Below, piece after piece: positions 10,090-62,871 of a DNA stretch of 64,000 bases (the stretch's first letter is position 1; each line of letters begins with the position of its first letter). The notes under the pieces were generated by a model, which was given only the letters and a program-made list of their open reading frames with translations, was not told where the DNA came from and searched no databases. A program made the position numbers and the translations under genes. Source of the stretch: a virus (Duplodnaviria; Caudoviricetes). The DNA lies in the IMG/VR virus record IMGVR_UViG_3300033076_001485, positions 32,001 to 96,000 of that record. One strand, 5' to 3'.

Positions 10090-12444
10090 ATGTCATCAAA
10101 GTTTTTAAGAAAAACAGCTCGAAGGCTAATAAGAGATTTTGATCAATTTCAGCAAACTTATCCAGCACTTGTAAGATCAGAAGATCCTCTTAATAACGGC
10201 ATAAATTTAAAAACAAGCTTTAATGATGTCAAGACATTAGTATTTTCTGATCAAAATATTCAATTTCCGTCAATGCTACCTTTAGGCATGTCAAATTTAC
10301 CTAGCAGTTCAATTAATGCTATTGTAAATTTTAGTGCTGCTGCAATTGAGCAACGCCCGAGTTTGCCAGGAAGTACCGAGGGTCTTTCACCTTTTAATGA
10401 AACAATTTTTAATCTACCTGCAACATATGAGAACACATCGTCAATAGCAATTGCACCAGGATTTTCTACACCTGCACGCAATAAGATTGCAATACCGATT
10501 GATATAACTGCCAAACAAGAAAAATACATGTTTAGGCTTGGTTATTCTCTTACAAACTCCGACCCAGCAGGTCTTTTTTACGGACAAGCAGGTACAGGTT
10601 TTTGTTATTATAACTTTGATGAAAAGAGATGGGAAGATATTGGTCTAGATTTGAATTTTTACACAGGGCACATGGGCAACGGATCAGTTGCCAATCCAGA
10701 GACAGTTAATGGACAAGATTATTTCATGTCACAGTTTGTTGGAACTCCAAACGTCTCTTTTCCAGGAACTCCTGCGATTGCAGGACAGACAACAAATTAC
10801 ATAAAATACTTTGGTTATGATAAAATTGGAAGTCCGACAGAGTTTTTTGACGCTCCACTGGCACCACGTTACCACGCAACTGGAAGTCAAGGCTTACTCA
10901 TGTCTAACTACATTGCACAACCTTTTGCACTTGAAAGAATAGATGTAAAAATTCCTTTTGTTGCAAGAAGAAAACACGGACCAATTATAACAGGTGCAAG
11001 AGCAGAGTCGTCGTTAAGAGATATTGACAATCTTGTATTTTTCATATATCGTCAATCTGGCAATGTCAATGATCAGAAAGAAACCGTTAGATCACTAATA
11101 GCACATGAATCTTTGTCTTTTTTTAATAGCAAAATTAATTCAAACGTAAATTACACTTTACATGACCCCGTTTTTTCATACGACTATGATGAGAGTTTAT
11201 CATCAACAACAGAAAGACTTTTCACTGGATCTGTAACATTTACGACATATCCTAAAGTAACTTCCAAGAATTTTGCGGGGACAACAGCAAACACATTTTA
11301 CGATACAGTTGCAGGAACTTTTAAGCGTGCCGGTATCATAAATTTTTGGTCTGGTCCACTAGAAGCCGTTGTTTCAAGTAGCACAAACACGGTCAGTGGA
11401 GATGTAGGACCATCGGGAAACAATGATTTTTGGAGAATAAAGAATTCTACAAGAGGATCGGGCGCCGGCCTTAACATAACATTTGAGTCTACTCTTAATT
11501 CCGATCCTAGATTTTTAACTAATTACGCGACCGGGTCTCTGCAGCCACTAAATAGCTATTCGTTACCGACATCATTTTATAGCAGCAAAAATTGGTCACA
11601 ATATAACACAGCATACACACTACTCCCGCAAGATAGACTAGTTTTTGGTCTTGAATCAGATATATGCGCAAGAATCTCTGCTAATGGTTCATATATAGCA
11701 GGCATTGATTCATCGCCGCTTGGGGTCACAAGTTCATTTTTTAAGATTCTAACAGATCAAGCACAAGTAACTTTGTACGGGTCGCTTATACAAAATGGCA
11801 TTGCAAAAACAACGAATAGTATTAATCAAAATCTAGTTTCTCCAGCAGTTCATGAAATTATTGCTAACACACAAGATGATACTGATCAATTTGATAATGC
11901 TGAAAGATCACTTTATGTGGGTACTTATCTAGATAACTTTATGACAGGTTCTATGATTCTAGGTAATAGAGCAATAGCACAAAGTATTATTAACGGTCCA
12001 CAGATTGCATCGGGATCATTTATAAGATGTTTACCTTTGACGGATGGAGAAAAAACTTACTTCCAGAAAGGAATATCAACCATATTTGTAGTAACTGTCC
12101 CCTATTCAGAACCTAGAAATCCTAAAAATTATTTTAGATTTAATAAATACGGTAATTTTAGAGACATGCTTGAACAAGCACGTGACTACAGAATTTTCAA
12201 TAAATCACTCTATAAGAAGTCGGGTGGATTTGAAGAGCAGGGACCCGTTTATGCACAATTTGTTTTGTCATCATCAGAAATACCTGTCTCTGCATCTTTG
12301 ACACAATGTAATAATCTTAGCCCGTATATGACAGGAACATTTCCTTTTGATGATAGCATTACCGGATCCTTGTCGAGAGGCCCATATCCAGCGCCCAAGC
12401 AAAACAATCCATTTATACCCATAACTAACATTTTCAAGACATGA
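10090..12444 (+). CDS. hypothetical virion protein (784 aa), S/T/G-rich
   Basis: Long ORF in the baseplate cluster with many TGS/SGS tripeptides. Confidence 0.75.
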   Translation: MSSKFLRKTARRLIRDFDQFQQTYPALVRSEDPLNNGINLKTSFNDVKTLVFSDQNIQFPSMLPLGMSNLPSSSINAIVNFSAAAIEQRPSLPGSTEGLSPFNETIFNLPATYENTSSIAIAPGFSTPARNKIAIPIDITAKQEKYMFRLGYSLTNSDPAGLFYGQAGTGFCYYNFDEKRWEDIGLDLNFYTGHMGNGSVANPETVNGQDYFMSQFVGTPNVSFPGTPAIAGQTTNYIKYFGYDKIGSPTEFFDAPLAPRYHATGSQGLLMSNYIAQPFALERIDVKIPFVARRKHGPIITGARAESSLRDIDNLVFFIYRQSGNVNDQKETVRSLIAHESLSFFNSKINSNVNYTLHDPVFSYDYDESLSSTTERLFTGSVTFTTYPKVTSKNFAGTTANTFYDTVAGTFKRAGIINFWSGPLEAVVSSSTNTVSGDVGPSGNNDFWRIKNSTRGSGAGLNITFESTLNSDPRFLTNYATGSLQPLNSYSLPTSFYSSKNWSQYNTAYTLLPQDRLVFGLESDICARISANGSYIAGIDSSPLGVTSSFFKILTDQAQVTLYGSLIQNGIAKTTNSINQNLVSPAVHEIIANTQDDTDQFDNAERSLYVGTYLDNFMTGSMILGNRAIAQSIINGPQIASGSFIRCLPLTDGEKTYFQKGISTIFVVTVPYSEPRNPKNYFRFNKYGNFRDMLEQARDYRIFNKSLYKKSGGFEEQGPVYAQFVLSSSEIPVSASLTQCNNLSPYMTGTFPFDDSITGSLSRGPYPAPKQNNPFIPITNIFKT

Positions 12445-12474
12445 TGCTATTGTTATAATTAGCAATATCATGTC
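12438..12474 (+). promoter_or_regulatory. start-codon-occluding hairpin with the late-type motif ATAATTA (12455-12461) over its loop
   Basis: GACATGA (12438-44) pairs with TCATGTC (12468-74). TATTGTTA (12448-55) pairs with TAGCAATA (12460-67, one G-U). The ATG at 12470 is inside the stem. Confidence 0.6.
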
Positions 12475-13477
12475 AGGCATACTAGACTCTAAAACTCGCA
12501 TAATGGATGTTGTTCTTACAGCTGAGGGACGACGCCAGCTTGCAGCAGGAAAATTTGTACCCCAGTTCGCATCTTTTACAGATCGTCATGTTTTCTATGC
12601 AAAAGATGCTGCGAGCGGTTCTGATGATGCTTCTGCATATCTTTACTTTGAAGCAGGTAGCAGAAGCCAAGATCAAATTGTCATTGAAAATGATGATAGC
12701 GGTATGCTTATCCCATATAATGGTAATTCTGTGAGTGTCGCTCCTGACGGCAGAGTATATTCTGCGTCTCTAGAAACAATTACATCACCCACAGGACCAG
12801 GTACTTATAATCGTGTTAATTACACGCCTACAACGGGAACATTTGGCTCAATGTTTGAGCTTGTAAGCGGTTCAATATTGAATAGCTTGACTGACCAGTA
12901 TTTGATTAGAACAACTTATCCTTATGAAAAATATGATCAATTTTCTCTAACAACAGGCTCAATTGTTTTTAGAAGAAATAATTTTACACCATTCCGAGGT
13001 GCTCAACCATCAAGTCAAATTGGTGCGCTTGATCCATTCATTATTGATAGACAGCTATCACATCTTGATAATTTTAAGTTTTTATCGCCTGTGTACGTTG
13101 ATCAATCAAATGTTACTAAAAATTTAGGATCATATGATCCAATTGAGCCAATAGAGCAACTAACGTACGATGAACTCATGAGTAGCTTGTTAGGTAATGA
13201 TCCTCAATCTCCTCTCAAAGAAAAGCAAGTTGTTGATTTTGCACAAACTTCAATTCAAAGCAATGTCTTCATGCAAATTTTTGAAGGAACAACAACAAAT
13301 AGCGACGGAATTGCAATGCTTAAGAAGCTTGACTGTATTGATTTTGGTGAGTTCAAAGATGAGAATGATAAGCAGCGCCCGTACAAGCGAGTATTTTTTG
13401 TTGGAAAAGTTTATGCTGATGAGAGCGCAAGTCAAGCTCCTGCTTTTGTCAATCTCTTTACAATTGTGGCGGAATAA
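12470..13477 (+). CDS. putative baseplate/fibre-attachment protein; N-terminus paralogous to 21174-21878
   Basis: MSGILDSKTRIMDVVLTAEGRRQLAAGKF aligns with MGFLNQTTNNIIVDAVLTDLGRQFLARNDGSF. Confidence 0.6.
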   Translation: MSGILDSKTRIMDVVLTAEGRRQLAAGKFVPQFASFTDRHVFYAKDAASGSDDASAYLYFEAGSRSQDQIVIENDDSGMLIPYNGNSVSVAPDGRVYSASLETITSPTGPGTYNRVNYTPTTGTFGSMFELVSGSILNSLTDQYLIRTTYPYEKYDQFSLTTGSIVFRRNNFTPFRGAQPSSQIGALDPFIIDRQLSHLDNFKFLSPVYVDQSNVTKNLGSYDPIEPIEQLTYDELMSSLLGNDPQSPLKEKQVVDFAQTSIQSNVFMQIFEGTTTNSDGIAMLKKLDCIDFGEFKDENDKQRPYKRVFFVGKVYADESASQAPAFVNLFTIVAE

Positions 13478-19272: not shown

Positions 19273-19273
19273 A

Positions 19274-21124: not shown

Positions 21125-21173
21125 GATTTAACTTGTAACTTCACGCAAAGAATATTTAGAAACAGGTGTACAA

Positions 21174-25960: not shown

Positions 25961-25988
25961 AAGACGCATCTTACTATTAAGATATGTC
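25949..25988 (+). promoter_or_regulatory. sigma70-like promoter TTGAAC-N17-TACTAT for a leaderless primase mRNA, overlapping a start-codon-occluding hairpin
   Basis: -35 at 25949-54, -10 at 25972-77, ATG at 25984 at the expected TSS distance. GACGCATCTTA (25963-73) pairs with TAAGATATGTC (25978-88): 10 of 11 pairs including one G-U. Confidence 0.65.
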
Positions 25989-26949
25989 AACTGTCACATC
26001 AACCGACAAGATTCGGTTCTTACGCGGAATTTTTCGTGACATCCAGGTATCACGTGACGGAAATGACGCTGCGGTACCATGCCCAAATTGCAAGACACAA
26101 GATAAAAAGAAACTGTCAGTCAATATTGACACGTGGAAATATCATTGTTGGGTTTGCGGAATAAAAGGTAATAATCTTAGATCCGTATTTAAGCAATATT
26201 ACTCACCCGAAGTTCTTGCATCGTTTAGAGCTCAATTCGGCGGTAATGATGACGACGCATTAGAGGTAGAAAAACCTGTTGAAGTTGTTACTCTACCCAG
26301 CGGAATTTGTCCAGTACCGCTCGTCAAGACTTCAAGAGATCCAAACCAGCGGGCTTGTTACACTTACCTCACAAAAAGAGGTATTACTGAGCGTGACATG
26401 TGGTACTGGAAGATGTGCACTAGTAAAGAGGGAAGATTTGATCGTCGCGTAATCATACCATCGTTTGACTCAACAGGTGATCTCAATTACTATGTGTCGA
26501 GATCAATTGATGATGATACACGTCCTCGTTACGTTAATTCAAAAGCCAATAAGACAGAAATCATTTTCAATGACTTGATGGTTGACTGGACACAACCCGT
26601 TGTTCTTGTTGAAGGTGTGTTTGATGCAGTCAGAATAGGGCAAAATGCAATTCCTATTCTTGGGTCCTATCTTCCACAATCAGCAGCACTATTTAGTAAA
26701 ATAGTTGCTCATGAGCTGCAAGTGACTCTTGCACTTGATCCTGACGCAATTGACAAGTCGCACAAGATTGCGCAAGATTTTTTCTCATTTGGCATTGATG
26801 TTAGACAAGCAGATATTAGCGGATACAAAGATATTGGTGAAATGCCGCGAGAAGTTGCACGTCAAAGAATTGCAGAAGCAAAACCTTGGTTAAAAAAGAC
26901 AGGAATGCTTCACAAGATAAGCAAAATCTCTAGCGGATCGATCTTGTAG
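25984..26949 (+). CDS. dnaG: DNA primase (zinc-binding domain + TOPRIM)
   Basis: CPNC...YHCWVC zinc ribbon, RVIIPSFD, VLVEGVFDAV, LALDPDA, KDIGEM. Confidence 0.92.
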   Translation: MSTVTSTDKIRFLRGIFRDIQVSRDGNDAAVPCPNCKTQDKKKLSVNIDTWKYHCWVCGIKGNNLRSVFKQYYSPEVLASFRAQFGGNDDDALEVEKPVEVVTLPSGICPVPLVKTSRDPNQRACYTYLTKRGITERDMWYWKMCTSKEGRFDRRVIIPSFDSTGDLNYYVSRSIDDDTRPRYVNSKANKTEIIFNDLMVDWTQPVVLVEGVFDAVRIGQNAIPILGSYLPQSAALFSKIVAHELQVTLALDPDAIDKSHKIAQDFFSFGIDVRQADISGYKDIGEMPREVARQRIAEAKPWLKKTGMLHKISKISSGSIL

Positions 26950-26964
26950 CTGATATTTAATTAC

Positions 26965-27327
26965 ATGTCTAATAGAAATAATCTTCGCAGAATGATTTTA
27001 AGAGAGATGATGGATGTCATTAATGACGATGCTCTCTTTACACAGAGAAGCCATGTTGATGACACACCTGTCGGATCTGCCTCGGACGACGAAAGTGTTG
27101 ACGAGTCAGATGTCTGTGGTTGCGGTTGCGGAGGCGCGCCAGGTGGCTGCGGTAAGGGAAAGTCTGGAACCGTAACAGCAACTGTCTTGTTCAAACGCGG
27201 TCTATATGAAATCATCGAAGATGCAATCAGCGTTTATGATCAATATGACGACGCAGATGAAATTAGCGACGAAATGGTCGCCGAGATCGAGCACTTTAAT
27301 AAAGCACTCAAGGCGTTTCGACAATAA
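26965..27327 (+). CDS. small acidic protein with an N-terminal LRRMILRE helix and a CGCGCGG..GGCG motif; probable late/head-associated protein
   Basis: ORF fills the gap between primase and nuclease genes; GATATTTA motif ends 5 nt before the ATG. Confidence 0.7.
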   Translation: MSNRNNLRRMILREMMDVINDDALFTQRSHVDDTPVGSASDDESVDESDVCGCGCGGAPGGCGKGKSGTVTATVLFKRGLYEIIEDAISVYDQYDDADEISDEMVAEIEHFNKALKAFRQ

Positions 27328-27363: not shown

Positions 27364-30300
27364 ATGAAAGCGTTCCATATCTCAGACATTCACTTTAGGG
27401 GCCTAACTCGTCACGACGAGTATAGGAAGTGCTTCAATAGACTGTTTGATATTGCACGAAAGGAAAAGCCTGACGTCTTTTTCATTGGTGGAGATATCGT
27501 TCACTCGAAAACACAGGGAATTACTCCTGAGTTGATCGATATTTTAACGTGGTGCTTTGAGACCATGTCAGAAATTGCTCCTGTTCATATGATCCTGGGC
27601 AATCATGACGGTTTGATGCACAACAAGAGTCGCCAAGACGCTATCTCACCAATCATTAATGCGATCGGTAATGATCGTATTAAGCTCTACAAGAAGTCAG
27701 GAGTTTATCCTGTAGGCATTCCAGGAATTAACTGGTGTGTCTTTTCGTGCTTTGATGAAGATGGCTGGGATGAAGTCAAGCCTGTTCCTGGTGACATTAA
27801 TATTGCTTGCTTTCACGGATCAGTTCGTGGTTCATCAACTGATTCAGACTGGAAAGTTGACGGAGAAGTAACAGCAGATTTCTTCGATGGATTTGACTAC
27901 GTCTTCTTGGGTGATATTCACAAGCGTCAAAATGTAACAGGTGATGGCGTCATTGCGTATCCTGGATCATTTATCCAGCAGGATTACGGTGAAGATGTCA
28001 TCAAGGGATGTCTTCTTTGGGACATCAAGACCAAAACTTCATATGATAGCAAATTCATTCATATTGTCAATGATTCACCATTTGTAACAATTGGTTATCG
28101 TGGTAATGTTGATGAAACATTTACTATGATTGATGATATGCCGTCTGGTGCACGTGTTAGGATCGCGTCAGATGTACCAGTTCCACCGACTACACTGCAT
28201 TTGATCGAAACTCGTCTACAAACCACCAAGACGCCGAAAGAAATCGTCTACAAAATCACTGAGTTTAATGGTGGTAGAAATATTGCAGGAGACAATGCGT
28301 CCACAGCAACTGATCTTCGTCAACCAAAAGTTATAAAAGATCTCATTCGTGATTATTACGCAGACGCTGCTCTCCCAGCAGATAAGCTTACACGAATTGA
28401 TGAAATCGTAGACAGATATATGAAGTCGCTAGATATAAGCAGTGACGAAGATCGAAATTACAATTGGTCACTAGACAAGCTGACTTTCAAAAATACATTT
28501 GCATTCCGAAATGACAATGTCATCGATTTTTCCAAGTCGTCAGGAATTACAGGTATCTTTGGAAAAAATCGAGCAGGCAAGTCATCCATTATTGGCAGCC
28601 TTGTTTACTGCTTGTTTAACACATCAGATCGTGGGTCACTCAAGAATCTACACATTATCAATGATAAGGAGAATTCTTGCGAGGCAGAGGCCGATATTAC
28701 AGTAAAGGGCGACAAGTATAAGATTACTCGTCGTACCAAGAAGACGTCAAACAAGAAGGGTGACATCAATGTCAATACATCACTAAGCATTAGCAAGCTT
28801 GACACAGACTTGCAACTCAGTGATGTTTCAGATGAACAGCGACGTGAGACAGAAAAAGTTCTGCGACAGCTTATCGGCACAGCAGATGATTTTTTCATGA
28901 CATCTCTTGCTGCACAGGGCAATCTCAATAAGTTTTTTGATGAGAAGTCGACAGCACGTAAGCAGATTATTGGAAAGTTTCTTAATCTTGATATTTTTGA
29001 CGCGCTGTATGAACGATCACGTGAAGATCTTGTTCCGTTACGTTCTTCTTTCAAGGGGCGCAGAGATAAGCAGCAGATTGATGCCAAGATTGAAGATGCA
29101 ACCCGTTCGCTTCACGATGAGAAAAAAAGATTTGAAGAGTTGTCTACAGAATATGACAGCCTAACAAAGAAAATTACGGGTCTACGTGAAATCATTAGCG
29201 GAGATGCTTCTGGAGAAGCAGCACTTAAGCTTCGTGATCTCGAAAAAAAGGAAGTCGCAATTGAAAGCAAGCTAACTGAGGCTAGCACAGCTCATTCTTT
29301 GGCATGTGTATCACGTGATAAACACCAGGCCCGTCTTGATAAATTTAAGAAAGTTCGTGATGCATTCTCTATCGACGAGCTTCGACAGACACTTAATCAA
29401 CAGCGTGATCTTGAAACTCGACTTGAGTCTGCAAATCGAGAACTCCAACAGCACATCAAAGCATTTTCTAGACTTAATGAAGATGTAGGTATCCTATCAA
29501 CTGTTCCTTGCGGAGACGAGTATCCAACTTGCCCATTCATCAAAAAAGCATTTGAAAGCAAGTCAAAAGTTGCACAGGAAAAAGAAGAAATTGAGCAGCA
29601 AAAGTTGCTGATAAGCAATATGCTAGATACACTTGCAAACTATGTTTCTCAAGATGTAGCAGGGAAGATCAGCAAATATGAGCAAATGCTCAATGAGGAG
29701 CGCAGCCTCCAGATCGAAGTTAGTAAGCTTGATTTGAAGATTGAGCACAACGAGAAAATAATCACAGAACAAAGTCATAATAAACAAGAAGTTGGAAGAG
29801 AAATTGATAGACTTCGTGCCGTTGTCAGTGATTCAACAGCACTTTGTGGTGTCTATGACACAATCAAAGAAGTCGAGGCTAAGATCGAGAAAGTTCGCAA
29901 AGATCAGCTCACAAATGCTAAGAATATTGGCTCATTTGAGTCGTCTATCGAATCTCTTGCAGCAGAAAAAGAGACACTTGAAAAAGATCTTGTTGATCTT
30001 GAGATTTATGAGCTTTTCAATGTTTCCATGTCAAAGAAGGGTCTACCATCTCGTCTAATTTCTAAACTTCTTCCACTTGTTAACGCAGAAATCCAGAATA
30101 TTCTTCTAGGCGTTTGTAATTTCACAGTTGAGCTGGAAGTTGATGATGAGTCTAATTCACTTGAAGTTTACATTAACTACGGTGATAAACGACGGATAAT
30201 TGAGCTAGGATCTGGCATGGAGAAGATGATCTCAGCAATTGCAACTCGCGTCGCGCTCATCAACATGTCTTCACTTCCAAAGTCAAATGTGCTTATTATT

Positions 30301-30483
30301 GATGAAGGCTTTGGCGCGCTTGATGACGCAAATCTTGAAGCATGCACTAGACTCTTGAAGTCTCTGAAGAAATACTTTGGTCAGATCATGATTATCTCAC
30401 ATGTTGATGCAATCAAAGATGCCGTTGACAATTTTGTTGAGATTAATTGGATCGATGGCGGTGCAAATGTTAGATACGAATAA
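27364..30483 (+). CDS. Mre11(SbcD/gp47)-Rad50(SbcC/gp46) fusion nuclease-ATPase
   Basis: Phosphoesterase motifs HISDIH, GGDIVH, GNHD, FHG, GDIH; Walker A GKNRAGKSS; coiled coil; signature-like GSGME; Walker B/D-loop IIDEGFGALD; H-loop ISH. Confidence 0.93.
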   Translation: MKAFHISDIHFRGLTRHDEYRKCFNRLFDIARKEKPDVFFIGGDIVHSKTQGITPELIDILTWCFETMSEIAPVHMILGNHDGLMHNKSRQDAISPIINAIGNDRIKLYKKSGVYPVGIPGINWCVFSCFDEDGWDEVKPVPGDINIACFHGSVRGSSTDSDWKVDGEVTADFFDGFDYVFLGDIHKRQNVTGDGVIAYPGSFIQQDYGEDVIKGCLLWDIKTKTSYDSKFIHIVNDSPFVTIGYRGNVDETFTMIDDMPSGARVRIASDVPVPPTTLHLIETRLQTTKTPKEIVYKITEFNGGRNIAGDNASTATDLRQPKVIKDLIRDYYADAALPADKLTRIDEIVDRYMKSLDISSDEDRNYNWSLDKLTFKNTFAFRNDNVIDFSKSSGITGIFGKNRAGKSSIIGSLVYCLFNTSDRGSLKNLHIINDKENSCEAEADITVKGDKYKITRRTKKTSNKKGDINVNTSLSISKLDTDLQLSDVSDEQRRETEKVLRQLIGTADDFFMTSLAAQGNLNKFFDEKSTARKQIIGKFLNLDIFDALYERSREDLVPLRSSFKGRRDKQQIDAKIEDATRSLHDEKKRFEELSTEYDSLTKKITGLREIISGDASGEAALKLRDLEKKEVAIESKLTEASTAHSLACVSRDKHQARLDKFKKVRDAFSIDELRQTLNQQRDLETRLESANRELQQHIKAFSRLNEDVGILSTVPCGDEYPTCPFIKKAFESKSKVAQEKEEIEQQKLLISNMLDTLANYVSQDVAGKISKYEQMLNEERSLQIEVSKLDLKIEHNEKIITEQSHNKQEVGREIDRLRAVVSDSTALCGVYDTIKEVEAKIEKVRKDQLTNAKNIGSFESSIESLAAEKETLEKDLVDLEIYELFNVSMSKKGLPSRLISKLLPLVNAEIQNILLGVCNFTVELEVDDESNSLEVYINYGDKRRIIELGSGMEKMISAIATRVALINMSSLPKSNVLIIDEGFGALDDANLEACTRLLKSLKKYFGQIMIISHVDAIKDAVDNFVEINWIDGGANVRYE

Positions 30484-41712: not shown

Positions 41713-41743
41713 GGCGGCCACCCTTCGGGGTGGCCGTTTTGTT
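41713..41743 (+). terminator. intrinsic terminator after the capsid gene, C(UUCG)G tetraloop
   Basis: CGGCCACCC-TTCG-GGGTGGCCG followed by TTTTGTT. Confidence 0.92.
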
Positions 41744-41854: not shown

Positions 41855-41885
41855 CGTGATATTTATTTTAATAGGAGTTATCATG
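41855..41885 (+). promoter_or_regulatory. late-type motif ATATTTA (41859-65) in the 5' arm of a hairpin covering AGGAG and ATG 41883
   Basis: CGTGATA (41855-61) pairs with TATCATG (41879-85, one G-U), plus an inner TTTAT/ATAGG stem. Confidence 0.5.
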
Positions 41886-42498: not shown

Positions 42499-42536
42499 TT
42501 GGGCACGATACTTACAGATTGTAGGAACGTGCCCAA
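42499..42536 (+). promoter_or_regulatory. RBS/start-occluding hairpin containing the late-type motif GATACTTA (42507-14)
   Basis: TTGGGCACG (42499-507) is the exact reverse complement of CGTGCCCAA (42528-36). An inner CTTACA/TGTAGG stem covers the AGG of the RBS. ATG at 42536. Confidence 0.7.
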
Positions 42537-43711
42537 TGTCTACTTTTGCAACAACAGCAAATCCAACACCGTTTGGCGTGTTTGATCTTGAGACCGATTA
42601 TATTACTGATGCAGATAAGATGGTTGTTTTCGTAAAGCGAAAACTGGGAGATGATGTGCTCTCAGTTGAGCTTACTAAGAAGCAAATATGGGCCAACTTT
42701 GAAGAAGCATGTTTTGAGTATGGATCAATACTCAATCAGTATCAAGCAAAAAGCCAACTTGTCAATTGGCTCGGATATGCAACGGGTACACTGTCAGGAT
42801 CAGAAAATCTTTATCCTCGCGAGAGCTTAGAATTTTTGACAAGATTTGCAGAACCTTACGCATCTGAAGCCGACATTGGTGGGTCTTATAATCAAATTTC
42901 AGGTTCAATTCCGCTTGAGCCCGGACGTCAAGATTACGACATCTATCAAGAGTTGGTTGATTCATCTGGAATCCCTATTGTTAGTTCATCTCTTAACACA
43001 ATGAATGGGAAAATGAGAATTAGTGAAGTATTTCACTTTTCACCTCAGGCAGCATACAGATTTTTTGATACAACATCAGCAATTAATTATTTAAATAACG
43101 CATTTTCATTTGAGTCGTTCACACCTGAGACAATTTTCTACGTCTTACCAGTGTTTGAGGATGTTTTAAGAGCGGGCCAGCTTGATCTCTCAAACAGAGT
43201 GAGAAGATCAAATTATTCATATAAAGTCATTGGTACTAAAATAAGAATTTATCCAATGCCAACAAAAATAACGACACCAATGCCGCGCCTCTTTATCAGA
43301 GTCAAATTTATGCAGGATCCAATACATCCTGCATTCGCTGACCGATCAATTTATGGTGTGTCAAATCTTTCTAACATACCATTTGGTAATTTGCAATATA
43401 ACAGAATTAATAGCATTGGTCGACAATGGATACGCCAGTACACACTTGCATTGTCAATGGAAACGCTTGGAATGATTCGTAGTAAAATGGGTACTTTACC
43501 TGTTCCAGGCGGCAATGTAACGCTTAACGGCGCTGATCTTGTCTCAAAAGGCAGAGAGGATAAAAAAGAATTCGTAACAAAGCTCAAAGAGATGCTTGAT
43601 ACCATGACATATGATAAGCTAATAGAGCAACAAGCAACTCGTGCAGAAAACTTGAGCAAGCAACTTAAGTTTATACCACCGCCCAATGGCAAAGCAATAT
43701 TCACGGGGTGA
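42536..43711 (+). CDS. gp13: neck protein / head-tail adaptor (T4 gp13-like)
   Basis: RKLGDDVLSVEL N-terminus; QWIRQYTLAL...LGMIRSK...PGGNVTLNG C-terminus. Confidence 0.85.
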   Translation: MSTFATTANPTPFGVFDLETDYITDADKMVVFVKRKLGDDVLSVELTKKQIWANFEEACFEYGSILNQYQAKSQLVNWLGYATGTLSGSENLYPRESLEFLTRFAEPYASEADIGGSYNQISGSIPLEPGRQDYDIYQELVDSSGIPIVSSSLNTMNGKMRISEVFHFSPQAAYRFFDTTSAINYLNNAFSFESFTPETIFYVLPVFEDVLRAGQLDLSNRVRRSNYSYKVIGTKIRIYPMPTKITTPMPRLFIRVKFMQDPIHPAFADRSIYGVSNLSNIPFGNLQYNRINSIGRQWIRQYTLALSMETLGMIRSKMGTLPVPGGNVTLNGADLVSKGREDKKEFVTKLKEMLDTMTYDKLIEQQATRAENLSKQLKFIPPPNGKAIFTG

Positions 43712-45598: not shown

Positions 45599-45606
45599 GA
45601 TAGTTA
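45599..45606 (+). promoter_or_regulatory. candidate late promoter GATAGTTA (second copy ATACTTA at 45535-45541)
   Basis: The identical GATAGTTA recurs before sheath 2 and before the tube gene. Confidence 0.6.
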
Positions 45607-45629
45607 TATTCGGCTTTAAAGTCGGAGTA

Positions 45630-48600
45630 ATGATGGCAGAGACAACTTTTCGGTCACCCGGGTTCTTCGAGCAAGAGATTGATCTTTCAGCTCCTGCAGC
45701 ACCTGGAGTAACAGGCGTTCCAGTCGGTGTAATTGGAACAGCTGAAATTGGCCCCGCGTTTGTCCCAGTGACAGTTGGCAATGTTGGCCAGCTACAGCAA
45801 ATTTTTGGTTCACCGCGTGCTTCTGATATTGGTTTGCAGGGAGCAAGCCAGTACCTAGAAAACGGCACAGCGCTAACATACGTTAGAGTTTTAGGGTGTG
45901 GTGCAAATTCTACAACAGCAGATTTTAGCACAACAACATCACAAGGCACAGTAAAAAATGCAGGTTTTGTTATTAAAGGAACATCACCTGCAGGCGGGTC
46001 TGACAATAGACACGTGGGTGCATTGCAGTACATAACGGCTAAACACTGGGTATCAGCATCTGCAGATGTGGGTTACCCAATTTTCACAGACAACAATAGC
46101 TTTAGCGTTGCATCAGGTGATAATTTTGTCCATCTCGTAAGAGGCATGGTCATGATGGCATCGGGAACGCGTTTGCAGATTCTTGACCACGATCAAGCAT
46201 ATGCACCTGCAAACGTAGCAGATGATGCAGCAACCATTGGAAGCACAGTTGGATCAAGTCTTTATAGAAAATTTAAATTAGTAATTTCTAGTTCGGCTCA
46301 AGGCTATTCAACTGGGGATGGTCAAACTTGTGTTAGAATTTTAACAGCATCTCTAGACCCATCAGATTCAGCTTATATTAAGAATATTCTTAATACAGAC
46401 CCAACAAGGTTTGAAACTGAAGAGCATCTTCTCTACGCAGATTTTCCTGTAGAATCAGAAATTGCAATTGTTTCAACAGAAACAGGCGCTGTAGCAGTTG
46501 TGTCAGGATCAGCAAGCACATCAAGCACATCAGGCGATACATCACAATCATTTAGAGACGCATTTGGTAGATTTGATACGAGATATTCGTCAGCAAAGAC
46601 GACATATTTTATCTCCCAACCATACGGCTCAAGTGAATACGATCTTTTCTATTTTGAGACTCTGAATGATGGTGCTAACACATCTCAAAAATATAAGATT
46701 TCAATTAGCACTCTTGCTAAATCAAATGATCCTGCAAACCCATACGGGACATTCACAGTTCAAGTAAGAGATTTTTATGATACAGATAAAAATCCTGTGA
46801 TCATTGAGCAATACCCAAATTGCACTCTTAACCCAGATGACAGTGATTATGTTGCTAAAAGAATTGGCGACCAGAAATCATTCTTTAACTTTGATGCTCT
46901 AGTCCCAGATGAGAGAAAATCTTACACATCTGGTACGCGCAAAAATGTGTCAAATTGCATTAGAATTGTAATGCACCCAAGTGTAGAGTCTAAGAGAATT
47001 CCTGCAGATGCATTGCCATTCGGTTTCAGAGGATTGCCTGTTATTAAGACAACAGACACTCTAACAGACGGAACAGCAGGACTTGCTGGCTTCGGATCTT
47101 CCCCAGCAAGAAGACTTGCAGGTGTTTTCCCATCAGATAGCTTAGTAGAGCATACGGGCTCTGTTTTGCCTCCAGTTCCAATGCGTTTTAAAGTTACAAC
47201 AAATGCTGTAAACCCATCGGGAATATTTGTCGGTAACCCAGGTAATCTTGAATTAACCGACGCATCTTACTACTGGGGCATTAAATCTGAGACAGTTCCT
47301 TCAACAGGAAGCGTCAGCAATGCTATTTTAAGATCTAATGATAGCTCTACATTTAATAATTTGCTAGCATCATACAGCAAGCTTCTGGGCATTCAAAAAC
47401 TAGACGTGCTTGTAACTGGATCGGCAGCTGATGCTTTTGCTAATAACAAGTTTACGTTGGCACGAGTAGCGCTAAATAATTCACTCAACGGTAGAACAGT
47501 TGTTAATGCACTGTCTGATTTAACTGGAACTGCTGAGCAGCACATGCTTGAAACAGCATATATTAGAAATGGCACAGTTAATCCTACAAATTACACAGTT
47601 ACACCAACAGGTGAGGGTAATAGACTAACATTTGCATCTCTCTACTCTGTAACATCGTCAATCTACTTTAATAAGTTCACAAACTACGCAAAGTTTACAA
47701 ATATCTTTGCAGGTGGTTTTGATGGTCTTAATATTCTTGATCCCGATATGAATAAGATGAATGACAGATCTATGTCATCAGAGACAGGTGGCAAAGCGGT
47801 AGCATCTGTCAACATTGGTCTGAATTCATCTTACACACCCGGCGCAGGAACAAGTAATAGCATTGTATCAGCATACAGAACAGCAGCTGAAATACTAACA
47901 AATCGGTATGCATCAGGAATTAACGTTCTTGTTGCGCCTGGAGCAAGAGATTCTTCTGTAACAAATTACATTGCTTCACTTGTCCAGAATTATGGATTTG
48001 CAATCTACTTGATGGACATTCCTGGTTATGATTACAATGGAAATCGTCTATATGATGATAGCGCTAGCCGACCTGACGTCCAGCAGACTGGTAATAAATT
48101 CGCAAGTAGACGCTTGAATAATAATTTCACTGCAGTTTATTTCCCCGATGTTTCAATGCAAGATCGCGGCGGTTCTACACGCAAGATTAAGGCACCTGCA
48201 TCTGTTGCGGCACTTGCAGCAATTGGATACAATGATTCTGTATCGCATCCTTGGTATGCACCTGCAGGATTTAATCGTGGCGCACTTAACTTTGTCACAA
48301 CAACAGCAGTTAGATTGAATTCAAATGATCGTGACTTCTTGTACGATAATCGAATTAATCCAATAACATCATTCCCAGGTACGGGCTATGTAATATTTGG
48401 ACAGAAAACACTGCAGGTCGGAAAATCTGCACTCGATCGTGTTAATGTTCGTCGTCTTGTGAATGAAGTCAAGAGAACGGTTAGCAATATTGCAAGTAAT
48501 TTCTTGTTTGAGCAGAATAATGCAGCTACAAGAGCTTCATTTGTTGCTCAAGTAAACCCAGCACTCGCACTAGTTCAAGCACAGCAGGGTATTGAAGGAT

Positions 48601-48749
48601 TCCGCGTAATCGTTGACGAAACCAACAATACACAAGCAGATGTGATTGCAAACCGGTTAAATGGCCGAGTCATAATCATCCCAACACGTGCAGTTGAGTT
48701 TATCTCAATTGATTTCATTGTTACAGATAATGGCGCAAGCTTTGCGTGA
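45630..48749 (+). CDS. gp18: tail sheath protein, copy 1
   Basis: SPGFFEQEIDLS, GPAFVPVTV, WYAPAGFNRG, RINPI, FGQKTL, SALDRVNVRRL, FEQNN, IIPTRAVEFI. Confidence 0.95.
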   Translation: MMAETTFRSPGFFEQEIDLSAPAAPGVTGVPVGVIGTAEIGPAFVPVTVGNVGQLQQIFGSPRASDIGLQGASQYLENGTALTYVRVLGCGANSTTADFSTTTSQGTVKNAGFVIKGTSPAGGSDNRHVGALQYITAKHWVSASADVGYPIFTDNNSFSVASGDNFVHLVRGMVMMASGTRLQILDHDQAYAPANVADDAATIGSTVGSSLYRKFKLVISSSAQGYSTGDGQTCVRILTASLDPSDSAYIKNILNTDPTRFETEEHLLYADFPVESEIAIVSTETGAVAVVSGSASTSSTSGDTSQSFRDAFGRFDTRYSSAKTTYFISQPYGSSEYDLFYFETLNDGANTSQKYKISISTLAKSNDPANPYGTFTVQVRDFYDTDKNPVIIEQYPNCTLNPDDSDYVAKRIGDQKSFFNFDALVPDERKSYTSGTRKNVSNCIRIVMHPSVESKRIPADALPFGFRGLPVIKTTDTLTDGTAGLAGFGSSPARRLAGVFPSDSLVEHTGSVLPPVPMRFKVTTNAVNPSGIFVGNPGNLELTDASYYWGIKSETVPSTGSVSNAILRSNDSSTFNNLLASYSKLLGIQKLDVLVTGSAADAFANNKFTLARVALNNSLNGRTVVNALSDLTGTAEQHMLETAYIRNGTVNPTNYTVTPTGEGNRLTFASLYSVTSSIYFNKFTNYAKFTNIFAGGFDGLNILDPDMNKMNDRSMSSETGGKAVASVNIGLNSSYTPGAGTSNSIVSAYRTAAEILTNRYASGINVLVAPGARDSSVTNYIASLVQNYGFAIYLMDIPGYDYNGNRLYDDSASRPDVQQTGNKFASRRLNNNFTAVYFPDVSMQDRGGSTRKIKAPASVAALAAIGYNDSVSHPWYAPAGFNRGALNFVTTTAVRLNSNDRDFLYDNRINPITSFPGTGYVIFGQKTLQVGKSALDRVNVRRLVNEVKRTVSNIASNFLFEQNNAATRASFVAQVNPALALVQAQQGIEGFRVIVDETNNTQADVIANRLNGRVIIIPTRAVEFISIDFIVTDNGASFA

Positions 48750-48751
48750 TT

Positions 48752-48759
48752 GATAGTTA
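48752..48759 (+). promoter_or_regulatory. candidate late promoter GATAGTTA
   Basis: In the 30-nt gap before sheath 2. Confidence 0.6.
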
Positions 48760-48779: not shown

Positions 48780-51749
48780 ATGATCCCAGGCGTTTACTCA
48801 GGCGAAGTTGATCTAACAGGCGTATCAACGACACCCCCATCAGGTCCATCAGTAGGTATTGTTGGAACAGCACAATCTGGTCCCGCATTCGTTCCTGTGA
48901 GCGTGGGATCTGTTAGCGATTTTAATCGCGTTTTTGGCGAAGCAACTAGCACAAATTACGCAGCTATCGCAGGACAGCAATATTTTGCAAATGCAGCGTC
49001 ACCTTCTTCAGTTACTTTCCTACGCACACTAGGCGCAGGTAATGGACAGCAAAGAAGCACATCAACAGGTCAAGTAACAAATGCTGGCTTTTTGGTTGGT
49101 GAAAAGCAAGTGCAGGTAAATGGTGTAGTTGGAAGAAATCCATACGCAACAGATGGTGGTGTTCCAGGAAGAACTTACTTTTTAGGCTGCTACATGTCTG
49201 AGAGTGCTGGCTCTTCTATATTTTCTGATGCAGGAATTCAAGTAGATTCAAAAGCACACCCAATTTTACGTGCAGTTCTGCTTGCCCCATCAGGAGTAAC
49301 ACTTACACTTTCAGGTAATTTTAATACCAACAACACGCCTTCGACCTCAGCAGCAACATCAGGTGGCCCAAATGGTGCATTAACGGGTTCAGTAAACATA
49401 ACAGATTCAACTTTTGTAATGTTACTAAATGGGTTTACAGGAGAGGTGAATTCAATTACAGCATCATTTGATGTTGCAAATCCAAATCACTTTTCTCAAA
49501 ATGCCAGCATCAATAGAGATCCAACAAGAATTGAAGAGCTTGGTCACGTTCTTTACGCATACTACGATGTTCCATCATCTTTGGCAGTCGTTACAGGCTC
49601 GGGTATCTTGGACGCAGCATCGGCAAGAGCTTTTGCCGGAATTGAAGATGCAGCATTTATAACAACAGGATCACTTGCAAGAGACACAAGTTCATCGACA
49701 ACACCAAATTATGAAAACTTCAGAGATCGTTTCACGCATGCTAAAACACCTTACGTGGTGTCGCAGGATTTTGGCGGAACAAAATATGATCTTTTTAGAG
49801 TTCATACACTCGGCGACGGTGAGTTTACTAACACAAGATTTGTCTTTGCAATACAAAATATAGTTCCGGGTGTCGACAATGATACATACGGAACATTTGA
49901 TCTAGTTCTTTACAGCTATCCTGTTGGACAAGTATTTAATCTTACACCTGTCGCTGGTGTAGACTTCACAGGATTGACTCTCGATCCAGATTCACCCAAT
50001 TATATTGCTGCTAGAATCGGCGACCAAAGTACATACTTTGACTTTGATAAAGGCGTAACATCACAGAAGATTGTTACAGACGGTGATTATCCAGTAACAA
50101 ATCCGTATGTAAGAGTTGAAATGTCAGATATGTTCCTGGCAGGTGAGGTTCCTGTTGCGGCATTGCCAATCGGGCACAGAGGTTATGGACACCTTGTGAC
50201 ATCAGGCAGCCAGCTGTTGACAAATCTCTCTGATTCACTTCGCTTTGCTTCTGGTCAGACAGACGTCTTAAAACGCGTTATTGAGCCACCCATTCCTTAT
50301 CGTAGAAATATTGCGAATGGTGGCGTTGTTGATACATCTCTCTACTGGGGAATGCAGTTCACAGATGTACCTGGAGTAACTGATTTTAATTCTACAACTT
50401 CAAAGATGACATATGTTGATAGTCACACTAAATTCTTCCCAGGATTTTCACCTTCAAATATGAATTTCTTTGTAGATAATAATCCAGGTGCAGCAACGGT
50501 TGATGGCAACGTAAGAGACTCTGATCTTTTTAACAATAACTTTTTCTCACTTGAGAAGATTAAGGTAGTAACTGGTTCGTCTGCTATCAATAATCGTGCT
50601 GACAGCACACAGTGGGCAAATGCTGTTTATGTTAGAAATGGTAACATACCTGCAAATGATACAACAAAAACACGTGCTTTCCGCATTGACGATCTAAGAG
50701 AGACAGGTAATCGTCAATTTGCATCGTTCTTGTTTATTGCTCAGGGCGGTTTTGATGGCGTTAATATCTTTAATGCAGATAAAACTAAATTAACAAATGA
50801 TGCAATCAAGAGAGAAATTGATGATACAGCAGGACAGGGTGGGACAGCAGGCCCAACAGTAGCTGCTTATCGCAAAGCAGTTGATATAATGGGCAGCAAA
50901 GACGATGCTGACATAACACTTCTAACAATACCCAGCATAAGAAATAGTGCAATCACAGATTACGCAATCAGCGCAGTTGAAAATCGCTATGATTCACTTT
51001 ACTTGATGGACATCGAAGAGCGTAACAGCTATAACGTCGTTCTAACGGGCTCATATGACGGTTCACAGGTCAGCATCTCTAACACAATTAATGCCTTTAG
51101 AAATCGTGGCCTCAACACATCATTTGCAGCTGCATATTTCCCAGACATTAATATCCCATTCAATGGTACAACAACACGTGTACCACCTAGCGTTGGTGTT
51201 TTAGGGTCATTTGCTTATAATGATAGAGTCTCTTACCCGTGGTTTGCACCTGCAGGTGCAAATCGTGGCGTGATTACAACAGCAGGAACAGCAGCAACGC
51301 AGATTAAGCAGGGAACTCTTGCTGATTCAATCTACGATGCGCATATCAATCCAATTCTTGACATTACATCAAATTCTGATAGAAAACTTGTAATCTATGG
51401 ACAGCGAACACTCCTAGCAAAAGCATCAGCACTTGATCGTGTTAATGTTCGTCGTTTGCTTATCTACCTACGCAGACAAGTACGTGCAGTTTCTAATCAG
51501 ATTATCTTTGAGCCCAATACAGCAGCAACGCTTGAGCGCTTCAATAGTCTCGTTAATCCTATCCTTGCATCAATCCGCGCTAAGGGCGGACTTGAGCGAT
51601 ACAAGGTTGTGATTGACTCGACAACAACAACACAAGCAGACATCGAGAACAATACCATTCGTGGTAAGATCTTTATTCAACCCACACGCTCTATTGAGTT
51701 CATCGCACTAAGCTTTGAGCTCACTAATGCAGGTGTGACGCTTACTTGA
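48780..51749 (+). CDS. gp18: tail sheath protein, copy 2
   Basis: PGVYSGEVDLT, GPAFVPVSV, WFAPAGANRG, YGQRTL, SALDRVNVRRL, FEPN, IQPTRSIEFI. Confidence 0.95.
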   Translation: MIPGVYSGEVDLTGVSTTPPSGPSVGIVGTAQSGPAFVPVSVGSVSDFNRVFGEATSTNYAAIAGQQYFANAASPSSVTFLRTLGAGNGQQRSTSTGQVTNAGFLVGEKQVQVNGVVGRNPYATDGGVPGRTYFLGCYMSESAGSSIFSDAGIQVDSKAHPILRAVLLAPSGVTLTLSGNFNTNNTPSTSAATSGGPNGALTGSVNITDSTFVMLLNGFTGEVNSITASFDVANPNHFSQNASINRDPTRIEELGHVLYAYYDVPSSLAVVTGSGILDAASARAFAGIEDAAFITTGSLARDTSSSTTPNYENFRDRFTHAKTPYVVSQDFGGTKYDLFRVHTLGDGEFTNTRFVFAIQNIVPGVDNDTYGTFDLVLYSYPVGQVFNLTPVAGVDFTGLTLDPDSPNYIAARIGDQSTYFDFDKGVTSQKIVTDGDYPVTNPYVRVEMSDMFLAGEVPVAALPIGHRGYGHLVTSGSQLLTNLSDSLRFASGQTDVLKRVIEPPIPYRRNIANGGVVDTSLYWGMQFTDVPGVTDFNSTTSKMTYVDSHTKFFPGFSPSNMNFFVDNNPGAATVDGNVRDSDLFNNNFFSLEKIKVVTGSSAINNRADSTQWANAVYVRNGNIPANDTTKTRAFRIDDLRETGNRQFASFLFIAQGGFDGVNIFNADKTKLTNDAIKREIDDTAGQGGTAGPTVAAYRKAVDIMGSKDDADITLLTIPSIRNSAITDYAISAVENRYDSLYLMDIEERNSYNVVLTGSYDGSQVSISNTINAFRNRGLNTSFAAAYFPDINIPFNGTTTRVPPSVGVLGSFAYNDRVSYPWFAPAGANRGVITTAGTAATQIKQGTLADSIYDAHINPILDITSNSDRKLVIYGQRTLLAKASALDRVNVRRLLIYLRRQVRAVSNQIIFEPNTAATLERFNSLVNPILASIRAKGGLERYKVVIDSTTTTQADIENNTIRGKIFIQPTRSIEFIALSFELTNAGVTLT

Positions 51750-51751: not shown

Positions 51752-51759
51752 GATAGTTA
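51752..51759 (+). promoter_or_regulatory. candidate late promoter GATAGTTA
   Basis: In the 30-nt gap before the tube gene. Confidence 0.6.
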
Positions 51760-51779
51760 GAAATAGGAGAAAATTCATT

Positions 51780-52268
51780 ATGGCAGAGACACTCTCAGTC
51801 ACCGATATGCTTCCTAATAAGTTTGAGCCAAAGCGTCAACATCGCTGGGTCTTCGCGCTTGAGGGAATTGACTCATATCTCGTGTCAAAGGCATCACGCC
51901 CAACATTCACGGGTGGAGAAATCACAATCCCATGGATCAATAGTCACCGTTACCTCGCCAAGAGATTTACATTCGGTACTATTAATATCACTCTTCACGA
52001 TCCAATTGCACCTTCTGGTGCACAGCAAGTGATGGAGTGGTTAAGAACACATCACGAGATGGTGAGCGGTCGTACAGGTTACGCAGACTTTTATAAGCGT
52101 GATTGCCAGCTTAAGATGCTTGATCCTGTTGGAACTGTTGTTGAGCTTTGGGATTTCAAGGGCGCATTTATCACAACAGCAAACTACAATGGTGTTGATT
52201 ACACGAATGATGATATCATGAAGATTGATCTCACATTACGCTTCGACAATTGCGTTCTCCAGTTCTGA
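51780..52268 (+). CDS. gp19: tail tube protein (T4 gp19-like)
   Basis: FEPKRQHRW, ITLHDPIAPSGAQQVMEW, LDPVGTVVELWDFKGAF, LTLRFD; 162 aa, directly after the sheaths. Confidence 0.92.
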   Translation: MAETLSVTDMLPNKFEPKRQHRWVFALEGIDSYLVSKASRPTFTGGEITIPWINSHRYLAKRFTFGTINITLHDPIAPSGAQQVMEWLRTHHEMVSGRTGYADFYKRDCQLKMLDPVGTVVELWDFKGAFITTANYNGVDYTNDDIMKIDLTLRFDNCVLQF

Positions 52269-52286
52269 TTTTTATATTTACACAGT

Positions 52287-52320
52287 AAACTCCTGCCTAT
52301 AATGTTAGGCAGGAGTTTTT
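52287..52320 (+). terminator. terminator-like hairpin after the tube gene that also sequesters the next gene's RBS
   Basis: AAACTCCTGCCTA-TAATGT-TAGGCAGGAGTTT then TT. AGGAG (52311-15) is the RBS for TTG 52324. Confidence 0.8.
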
Positions 52321-52323
52321 ACT

Positions 52324-53178
52324 TTGGCACGAAAAAATGATGTTTTTGCGGCAAGCAGCAATGATAAGCGGCAGAGTGCACCTGAGGGTGTAATTCGTCA
52401 AGATATCATGAAAGAATTTGATTGGGAAGTACCAGTTGATATTTCTCCTCTTCCTTCACAAGGCAGAGTTTATCCTGTAAATTCTTCTTTGCACGGTAAA
52501 GAGTCACTTGCAATTAAAGCAATGACAGCAAAAGAAGAAGATATTTTGATGTCACGTGCTTTTTCTAAGCAGGGAACAACAGTTACTGAATTAATTAGAT
52601 CTTGTGTTGTTGATAAAAATTTTGATCCTGGCGATTTGCTTGTTGGTGATAGACAAGCATTGCTCGTTGCAATTAGAATTACCGGTTACGGTGCTGATTA
52701 TCGACTCGATCTAGATTGTCCTGCATGCGACAAAAGAAGCACAGGAGAGTTTGATTTAAGCTCACTCGAGCTTCAAAGACTTGAGATTGATCCTGTCACA
52801 CCCGGTGCCAATGAATTCTTGACTGTCTTACCCGTCTCTAAAAAGCGTGTAACATTTAAATTTATGACAGGAAAAGATGAGCAAGAGATGAATTCTCTTG
52901 TTGAGCGTAGAAGAAAATTGCTTGGTGACGGCGCAGAGAACGTTATTACGACTCGCTTGTCATTCCAGACCCTGTCTGTCGAGGGAATCACTGATAAGAA
53001 TAAGATCGGCATGTTTATTGCTAATATGCCCGCAAGAGATTCGCTTCATCTAAGAGAGCATATTAGAAAACACGAACCAGGCTTGAACATGAAGTCAAAT
53101 TTTCACTGTTCTCTCTGCGGTGCAGATAGTGAGGTGACGCTTCCTTTGGGCGTAAGCTTTTTTTGGCCTACGACCTGA
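52324..53178 (+). CDS. tail/baseplate-hub assembly chaperone (T4 gp26/gp51-like)
   Basis: LPSQGRVY, MTAKEEDIL, GDRQALLVAIRITGYG, CPAC and CSLC, ends FFWP; between tube and tape measure. Confidence 0.8.
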   Translation: MARKNDVFAASSNDKRQSAPEGVIRQDIMKEFDWEVPVDISPLPSQGRVYPVNSSLHGKESLAIKAMTAKEEDILMSRAFSKQGTTVTELIRSCVVDKNFDPGDLLVGDRQALLVAIRITGYGADYRLDLDCPACDKRSTGEFDLSSLELQRLEIDPVTPGANEFLTVLPVSKKRVTFKFMTGKDEQEMNSLVERRRKLLGDGAENVITTRLSFQTLSVEGITDKNKIGMFIANMPARDSLHLREHIRKHEPGLNMKSNFHCSLCGADSEVTLPLGVSFFWPTT

Positions 53179-53374: not shown

Positions 53375-53392
53375 AATTAAGAGGGCATGTAG

Positions 53393-59679: not shown

Positions 59680-59680
59680 A

Positions 59681-62800: not shown

Positions 62801-62826
62801 AGATAGCATTTTCTTATTTAACAATA

Positions 62827-62871
62827 TTGTTCAATTGTTTTGTGCATGGTAAGTTTTAACCATGCACAAAA
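62827..62871 (+). promoter_or_regulatory. sigma70-like promoter TTGTTC-N17-TAAGTT (extended TGn) within a perfect 13-bp hairpin covering the polA start codon
   Basis: -35 at 62827-32, TG at 62847-48, -10 at 62850-55, ATG at 62862. TTTTGTGCATGGT (62838-50) is the exact reverse complement of ACCATGCACAAAA (62859-71). Confidence 0.7.

Follow-up and report, generated by a model that had tools for sequence, protein, structure and literature searches.

Hairpins enclosing promoter-like boxes at a subset of gene starts in an uncultured, distantly T4-like phage

We report that about 11 of 104 genes on a phage contig from the IMG/VR database (record IMGVR_UViG_3300033076_001485) begin within a hairpin that carries a promoter-like box in its loop or at the end of its 5′ arm and buries the Shine-Dalgarno (SD) sequence or the start codon in its 3′ arm. 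The window analyzed here is a 64,000-nucleotide (nt) stretch, bases 32001-96000 of this 123,469-base-pair (bp) contig; all positions, including a few that lie beyond the window, are contig coordinates less 32000 unless stated otherwise. In the window, the subset comprises the gene at 12470, an adaptor-like gene at 42536, the baseplate hub gene at 52324, and polA at 62862. We propose that when such a gene is transcribed from upstream, its translation start would be folded into a hairpin of the sense-strand RNA. Its own promoter box, either a TATAAT-like −10 that often has no good −35 or the phage-specific GATANTTA, would instead give rise to a transcript beginning inside or just before the 3′ arm. 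Without the 5′ arm, this transcript would leave the SD free or carry the AUG at its very 5′ end, and translation of the gene would thus be tied to the firing of its own promoter, as in T4 genes e, soc, 49, and I-TevI. We favor this T4-like silencing of read-through mRNA, together with a putative terminator at 52287 that resembles the promoter-early stem-loops (PeSLs) of some T4-like phages, and hold this view with about even confidence.

The first line of evidence comes from folding the region from −50 to +20 around all 104 starts against dinucleotide shuffles, a check that had been suggested in the initial annotation of the window. A z-score below −2.5 was obtained at 13 of the 104 starts, compared to 11 of 300 control coding positions, and the median start was unstructured (z +0.12), so the strongly folded starts form a distinct subset. 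Perfect stems of at least 12 bp occur eight times in the whole 123-kb contig, against roughly 0.3 expected by chance (our own rough estimate); of these, six have their end between −9 and +19 relative to a gene start, and another is a classical terminator. A scan of the whole contig with a raw minimum free energy threshold showed no enrichment of hairpins near starts (16/344); GC-richer coding regions dominate its list, which made perfect-stem counts and z-scores necessary.

Genome-wide, 11 strong hairpins share a common layout of 5′ arm, box, and 3′ arm over the SD or start codon, with a −10-like box (TATAAT type or GATANTTA) in the loop or at the end of the 5′ arm. Transcription start sites (TSSs) were predicted by analogy, at +7 after a −10 and at +6 after a late-type box. 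Placed in this way, the TSS falls 3′ of every 5′-arm base in 11/11 hairpins, while the last base of the 3′ arm lies at −6 to +9 relative to the start codon, which agrees with the geometry described in the initial annotation. The predicted leaders are either 0-4 nt long or 11-19 nt long with the SD at the extreme 5′ end.

Nine sites had been singled out in the initial annotation, six as main sites and three as weaker candidates, and these were subjected to three tests. The claimed interval was folded and compared with dinucleotide shuffles; the region from −50 to +20 was folded as an unbiased alternative; and in an arm test, the 24 nt preceding the box were paired with the sequence that runs from the box to position +10 of the gene, and the duplex energy was compared with that of shuffled upstream arms. 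Gene calls were made by a greedy longest-open-reading-frame caller, and start errors occur among them (for example, 41856 should read 41883). A stable RNA helix taking in the SD and/or start codon was present at four of the six main sites, whereas 25963-25988 was marginal and 41855-41885 lacked support. None of the weaker candidates (21133-21173, 26945-26965, and 45607-45629) rose above chance as a promoter-spanning hairpin, leaving four of the nine sites. The four hairpins, with their folding free energies (dG), are as follows.

12438-12474, plus strand: hairpin of 15 pairs with a bulge; dG −13.5 kcal/mol; interval z −3.9; arm test z −3.7
42499-42536, plus strand: hairpin with a 9-bp perfect outer stem; dG −19.1 kcal/mol; interval z −6.7; arm test z −3.7
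52287-52318, plus strand: hairpin with a 13-bp perfect stem; dG −21.4 kcal/mol; interval z −7.2; arm test z −6.7
62838-62871, plus strand: hairpin with a 13-bp perfect stem; dG −17.9 kcal/mol; interval z −5.9; arm test z −6.3

The first of these spans the start of a 335-amino-acid gene of unknown function (ATG 12470). Its 5′ arm, beginning GACATGAT, includes the upstream stop TGA at 12442-12444, its loop contains the extended −10 TGTTATAAT (TATAAT 12454-12459), and its 3′ arm, ending ATCATGTC, holds the ATG. A −35-like TTTTCA is found at 12431-12436; TTTTCA-17-TATAAT with TG was flagged in the promoter scan, and the predicted leader is about 4 nt. A generic sigma70 −35/−10 scan gave counts that were not above those of shuffles (53 vs 47.3; 78 vs 68.0), and the −35/−10 pattern alone is therefore uninformative in this genome. 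The adaptor hairpin consists of 5′ arm TTGGGCACG (42499-42507), a loop with GATACTTA (42507-42514) and an SD-like AGGA (42523-42526), and 3′ arm CGTGCCCAA (42528-42536), the last base of which is the A of ATG 42536; the predicted TSS lies at approximately 42520. The hub hairpin, located between the tail tube and baseplate hub genes (hub start TTG 52324), has TATAAT (52298-52303) at the junction of arm and loop, a 6-nt loop, and a 3′ arm, TAGGCAGGAGTTT, that carries the SD AGGAG (52311-52315) and is followed by a T-run. The polA hairpin covers the start of its gene: TGgTAAGTT (TAAGTT 62850-62855) occupies the loop, and at a distance of exactly 6 nt from this box the ATG (62862) follows in the 3′ arm, with no SD. 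A possible operator lies just 5′ of this hairpin, where the −35-like TTGTTC of the putative promoter is overlapped by AACAATATTGTT, a perfect palindrome of 12 bp at 62820-62831.

Comparison with relatives supported several of these structures. Many relatives are present in IMG/VR, among them a syntenic 164-kb contig, G001, with 45-97% amino-acid identity; between it and the present contig, structure z-scores at 51 orthologous starts are correlated (Pearson r = 0.79). Conserved stems or compensatory changes, also named as a check in the initial annotation, were found at 52287 and 42499 and in part at 62838 and 25963, but not at 12438. The hub hairpin persists both in G001 and in a relative of 49% identity, with 39/39 pair cells standard across the three lineages and 8 of 13 pairs changed on both sides, as counted by script on ungapped 32-mers (a MAFFT alignment had introduced gaps). 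The T-run is retained in all three lineages, and the TAnAnT box at the arm/loop junction reads TATAAT, TATACT, and TAGACT. At the adaptor gene, G001 has wholly different arms around the same box, and close relatives have two unrelated hairpin "alleles" around an invariant GATACTTA. Across 56 distinct upstream regions from relatives with 68-93% protein identity, many different, unrelated arm sequences surround the conserved box, and pairing between the sequence upstream of the box and the SD/start reached z < −2 in 24 and z < −3 in 11. Adaptor relatives with a separate upstream terminator were not significantly poorer in a promoter-spanning hairpin (1/5 vs 21/50).

For polA, the ATG in G001 is covered by no more than a weak hairpin, rich in G·U and of different sequence (E −6.4), and the one further relative found is missing its 5′ end. 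Before the primase gene, a 19-nt stretch, ATCTTACTATTAAGATATG, is invariant in nine relatives, most of them with a 9-bp stem; due to this invariance, the site says nothing about covariation. At the 12470 gene, the promoter TTTTCA-17-TGTTATAAT is kept in 8/8 relatives, with the stem weakened or broken in several (G001 z −0.14).

The hairpins also carry a signature of structure at the RNA level. The sense strand folds better than the antisense strand in 29 of 32 hairpins, and G·U pairs number 83 on the sense strand compared to 21 on the antisense strand, a difference beyond the composition effect seen in shuffles. The bias implies no more than selection on an RNA that contains both arms; such an RNA would be a read-through transcript, as had been supposed. 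It also bears on whether the inverted repeats act at the DNA level, as operators or as cruciforms with an influence on promoter opening, or arose by chance as palindromes in AT-rich spacers. The repeats do flank −10 boxes, and the separate palindrome AACAATATTGTT lies over the −35 region of polA. However, the arms of every hairpin differ in sequence and hence offer no common protein-binding site, the imperfections are sense-strand G·U pairs, pairing is preserved by compensatory changes, and the frequency of the hairpins is far above that of shuffles. We consider DNA-level action or chance to be extremely improbable.

Structure on the sense strand, at intercistronic positions in a co-oriented genome, would likewise be expected of mRNA processing or stability elements, such as stems protecting the 3′ end of the upstream message or endonuclease sites like those processed by RNase III in T7. 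Stems of 9-14 bp are short for RNase III. Moreover, the hairpins are anchored on the downstream start, at the spacing given above, and not on the upstream stop, from which their distance varies between −7 and +37 nt, with one at 202. An Rfam search of the window returned no family matches, and a processing role seems to us very unlikely.

The spacing from the upstream stop is also relevant to translational coupling, in which downstream translation would depend on upstream ribosomes melting the 5′ arm and the boxes would be coincidental or secondary. This arrangement would suit a genome of tightly packed genes in one orientation (104 of 110 called open reading frames on the plus strand of the whole contig). 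The upstream stop does lie inside the 5′ arm at 12438 and 2-11 nt before it at four other hairpins. The other six of the 11 begin 12-202 nt past the stop, beyond a terminating ribosome (20 nt at 42499, 18 nt at 52287, and 37 nt at 62838), and coupling leaves the conserved −10-like box in the loop unexplained. We therefore regard it as improbable.

The hub hairpin raised a further alternative, as it is terminator-like and promoter-bearing at once. With its 13-bp stem, 6-nt loop, and T-run kept in three lineages, it has by sequence the form of a textbook terminator and is the top terminator-like site of the region. PeSLs, described in the T4-like phages RB49, phi1, PST, and nt-1, are composite terminator/promoter cassettes (PMC2839356, PMC4122927). 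They are intergenic, pair a sigma70-like promoter with a stem-loop that overlaps or adjoins the −10, and insulate downstream genes in dense genomes, and the sites described here resemble them in this layout, 52287-52318 being the best fit by virtue of its stem, T-run, and TATAAT. The hairpins could thus be mainly transcriptional insulators, that is, terminator/attenuator-promoter cassettes like those of RB49/phi1-type phages that halt or attenuate transcription from upstream and start it anew. They might also serve as recombination modules, and their overlap with translation starts would then be incidental to short leaders. In keeping with this, the gene at 73695, which has its own hairpin cassette, sits at a different place in G001, a single hint of the gene shuffling associated with PeSLs.

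Several features separate the present sites from PeSLs. In PeSLs, one motif of about 100 bp recurs with its sequence conserved, comprising a strong −35 and, upstream, an AT-rich part; the copies cluster in hyperplastic ORFan regions, and their stem lies 5′ of the SD. Here, in contrast, no two sites share their arms, a −35 is missing or weak, the SD or AUG falls within the 3′ arm, and core genes are included. By sequence, the U-tract of an intrinsic terminator is found only at 52287-52318 and is missing from the other 10 of the 11 hairpins. Since the arm sequences all differ, there is little homology for PeSL-type recombination, and among the intergenic regions of the contig no repeated, sequence-conserved motif of this kind was seen; only short boxes recur. 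We judge a primarily insulating role to be unlikely. If the hairpins instead silence read-through mRNA, as we favor, the 52287 hairpin with its T-run would double as an intrinsic terminator after the abundant tube gene, making it a PeSL-like terminator/promoter composite. No rival accounts equally well for the conserved loop box, the anchoring at the start codon, and the bias toward the sense strand.

We infer that the boxes are promoters largely from their distribution over the whole contig. The GATANTTA 8-mer is strand-specific, with 23 copies on the plus strand and none on the minus strand. More than half of the plus-strand copies (13 of 23) are found in the 45 nt ahead of a start, mostly at a distance of 24-32 nt. 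The 8-mer precedes both sheath genes, the tube gene, and the adaptor gene (examples in the window are at 42507, 45599, 48752, 51752, and 26952), and distant relatives retain the related forms ATAnTTA and CTAnTTA ahead of the adaptor gene. By analogy, GATANTTA is a candidate late-type promoter box, unlike the TATAAATA of T4. TATAAT occurs 37 times on the plus strand and 30 times on the minus strand; nine of the 37 are within 45 nt upstream of a start, against about 1.4 expected from genome share, and six of these nine sit in a hairpin loop or 5′ arm. Pairing across the box reached z < −3 at 7/22 box sites near starts and at 1/36 box sites elsewhere.

Both motif classes do occur inside hairpins, as the initial annotation stated. 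Its division of labor, with the late motif guarding virion genes and sigma70-type versions guarding replication genes, did not hold: a TATAAT-type hairpin guards the baseplate hub gene, TATAAT boxes also precede the genes for the prohead protease, an NDT-fold protein, an epimerase, and PhoH, and the sigma70-type site proposed to guard the primase gene is weak in the window.

Leaderless expression, also suggested earlier, appears plausible. A TAnnnT hexamer exactly 6 nt before the start codon was observed six times compared to 1.0 expected, and this enrichment is the basis for considering leaderless mRNAs; the TAAGTT of polA has the same 6-nt spacing, although it falls below the score cut-off used for the count. 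The examples listed below have a −10-like hexamer at exactly this distance and no SD.

25972-25986, plus strand: hexamer and start of the primase gene (TACTAT 25972-25977, 6 nt before ATG 25984)
62850-62864, plus strand: hexamer and start of polA
72218 and 86786: further examples

This geometry suggests that several genes, including polA and those for primase, prohead protease, and epimerase, may be expressed from leaderless mRNAs.

The T4 precedent named in the initial annotation is documented. Early read-through mRNA of e, soc, 49, I-TevI, and I-TevII in T4 has its SD or AUG sequestered by a hairpin, and a late promoter lies inside the structure (PMC3014915). The present sites are alike in that the SD or AUG is in the 3′ strand of the helix, the gene's own promoter would be in the 5′ strand or loop region, and its own transcripts are predicted to lack the 5′ strand. 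They differ in that the box is GATANTTA or TATAAT-like rather than TATAAATA, and in that leaderless mRNAs are predicted for several of them, where the AUG follows the box by 6-10 nt and an SD is absent. The phage is also only distantly related to T4, and the control proposed for it is a prediction from sequence.

For calibration, the identical pipeline was run on 110 annotated T4 starts (NC_000866, 1-50000 and 60001-70000). The T4 genes gave z-scores of −3.7 (e), −3.25 (49), and −3.6 (I-TevII), with soc at −2.4 falling just short of the −2.5 cut-off, and the corresponding values for the sites in the window ranged from −2.6 to −6.1. Structured starts were equally frequent in the two phages: 12/110 in T4 and 13/104 here at z < −2.5, 9 and 9 at z < −3, and 3 and 5 at z < −4. 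The idea that this phage uses the layout systematically and in both directions, unlike the few genes of T4, is thus not borne out, and in its use of hairpins the phage looks like T4. Nor are sigma70-type versions special to it. In our own folds of annotated starts, the T4 early/middle genes (start coordinates of NC_000866 in parentheses) regB (62740), denV (65355), modB (13130), motB.2 (8161), and dmd (20553) have a strong hairpin with a sigma70-type −10 inside; in regB, denV, and modB the SD is in the 3′ arm, and the loop −10 of regB is TGGTATAAT. The sites described here are a new example of the T4 pattern and not a new principle.

A number of observations weigh against the silencing of read-through mRNA and call for caution. 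Overlap of the hairpins with the SD or AUG is not in itself proof of translational selection, because, with such short leaders, a hairpin around the promoter will inevitably extend to the start. The hairpins at 12438 and 85500 are not kept in G001, the closest long relative. Exact-motif sites in G001 showed no excess arm pairing (2/22 vs 4/18 controls), a null result partly due to degenerate orthologous boxes and imperfect longest-reading-frame starts. Only about one third of box-bearing starts have a hairpin. In leaderless genes, an internal AUG without an SD would be poorly translated on read-through mRNA anyway, so that a hairpin may add little. In 5 of the 11 hairpins the upstream stop is inside the 5′ arm or at most 11 nt from it, close enough that terminating ribosomes could open the stem. 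Finally, the TSS positions at the boxes are themselves predictions by analogy.

The following entries describe the primase site, the site at 41855, and the box before tail sheath gene 1.

25963-25988, plus strand: weak hairpin before the primase gene, ATCTTA/TAAGAT with loop CTAT (6-bp stem plus extension)
41855-41885, plus strand: claimed hairpin, unsupported; GATATTTA box at 41858-41865, SD AGGAG, real start ATG 41883
45599-45606, plus strand: GATAGTTA box before tail sheath gene 1; also at 48752-48759 (sheath 2) and 51752-51759 (tube)

At the primase gene, a dG of −6.5 and an arm test z of −2.4 (p 0.03) were accompanied by an unbiased −50 to +20 fold of only z −0.8; the position of TACTAT gives this gene a leaderless geometry. 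At 41855-41885, dG was −4.2, with an interval z of −1.5 and an arm test z of +1.6 (the arm and −50 to +20 tests, but not the interval fold, were run one base off). The real start, ATG 41883, is indicated by the ortholog, and the G001 ortholog folds at z +1.55. No hairpin beyond chance was detected at 21133-21173 (z +1.1) or at 26945-26965 (z +0.4), and at 45607-45629 a small 7-bp hairpin 3′ of the GATAGTTA box was not significant (−50 to +20 z +0.9). The GATAGTTA boxes of sheath 1, sheath 2, and tube showed no promoter-spanning hairpin in the arm test (z +0.4, +1.5, and +0.7). The small hairpin before sheath 1 (45609-45627, TTCGGCT/AGTCGGA), whose stems are identical in G001, overlaps the sheath-gene SD in part; as it lies 3′ of the box, whether the TSS cuts it depends on the exact start.

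If the favored reading is correct, the classic T4 principle that a gene is translated only from its own promoter would extend to a distant, uncultured clade of large aquatic myoviruses, one with a late-type promoter box of a different kind and, probably, with leaderless mRNAs. Natural test cases would be the hub terminator-promoter hairpin and the adaptor hairpin, for which many independent arm variants exist, and the layout would be of use for annotating promoter boxes, start-codon choices, and operon boundaries in such genomes. More tentatively, and with doubts outweighing our confidence, promoter-embedded hairpins may be general in T4-like and far-T4 phages as an underrated means of gene insulation. 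They would then affect about 10% of genes, come in host-sigma and phage-late types with a leaderless variant, and, at the neck/adaptor gene, have been maintained in dozens of uncultured lineages while their arms were reinvented again and again. Perhaps the more interesting lead is T4 itself, where the layout, to judge by the calibration, is more frequent than the textbook "four genes" imply.

The source is an uncultured, distantly T4-like (far-T4) myovirus. A DNA-level search of an annotated phage collection with the contig gave no match. The best matches of the major capsid protein, at 47-51% identity, are to an uncultured 484-kb phage, Flavobacterium phage immuto, and a Microcystis phage; about 51% is the highest identity among the phage records found, and the closest named isolate, the Flavobacterium phage, is at 47%. 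Virion genes and one terminator in the window are listed below.

39756-41690: gp23-type major capsid protein
41715-41736, plus strand: canonical intrinsic terminator 3′ of the major capsid gene, GC-rich and strong, CGGCCACCC ttcg GGGTGGCCG followed by TTTTGTT
42536-43711: adaptor-like (head-tail) protein
45630-48749 and 48780-51749: tail sheath paralogs 1 and 2, in tandem
51780-52268: tail tube
52324-53178: T4-type baseplate hub

Ordinary terminators thus do occur in this genome, as at 41715-41736, a site absent from the output of a simple terminator scan. Further genes were identified for a RuvC-like resolvase, a primase, a fused Mre11/Rad50-like nuclease, and a family A polymerase (polA).

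Beyond the window, a 130-amino-acid gene at 73695-74087 (contig 105695-106087) has its own promoter-in-hairpin start. Its counterpart in G001 (139377-139763) is non-syntenic and has a different, TATAAT-type hairpin, an arrangement reminiscent of PeSL-type cassette shuffling. Both tandem tail sheath paralogs are very long (1039 and 989 amino acids), and each is preceded by its own GATAGTTA box. A single 1039-amino-acid reading frame at 27364-30483 looks like a fused gp47-gp46 nuclease, its first 365 residues matching SbcD/Mre11-like profiles and the remainder being SbcC/Rad50-like. A length of exactly 1039 amino acids recurs in three reading frames of the window (27364, 45630, and 59681), which is probably a coincidence.

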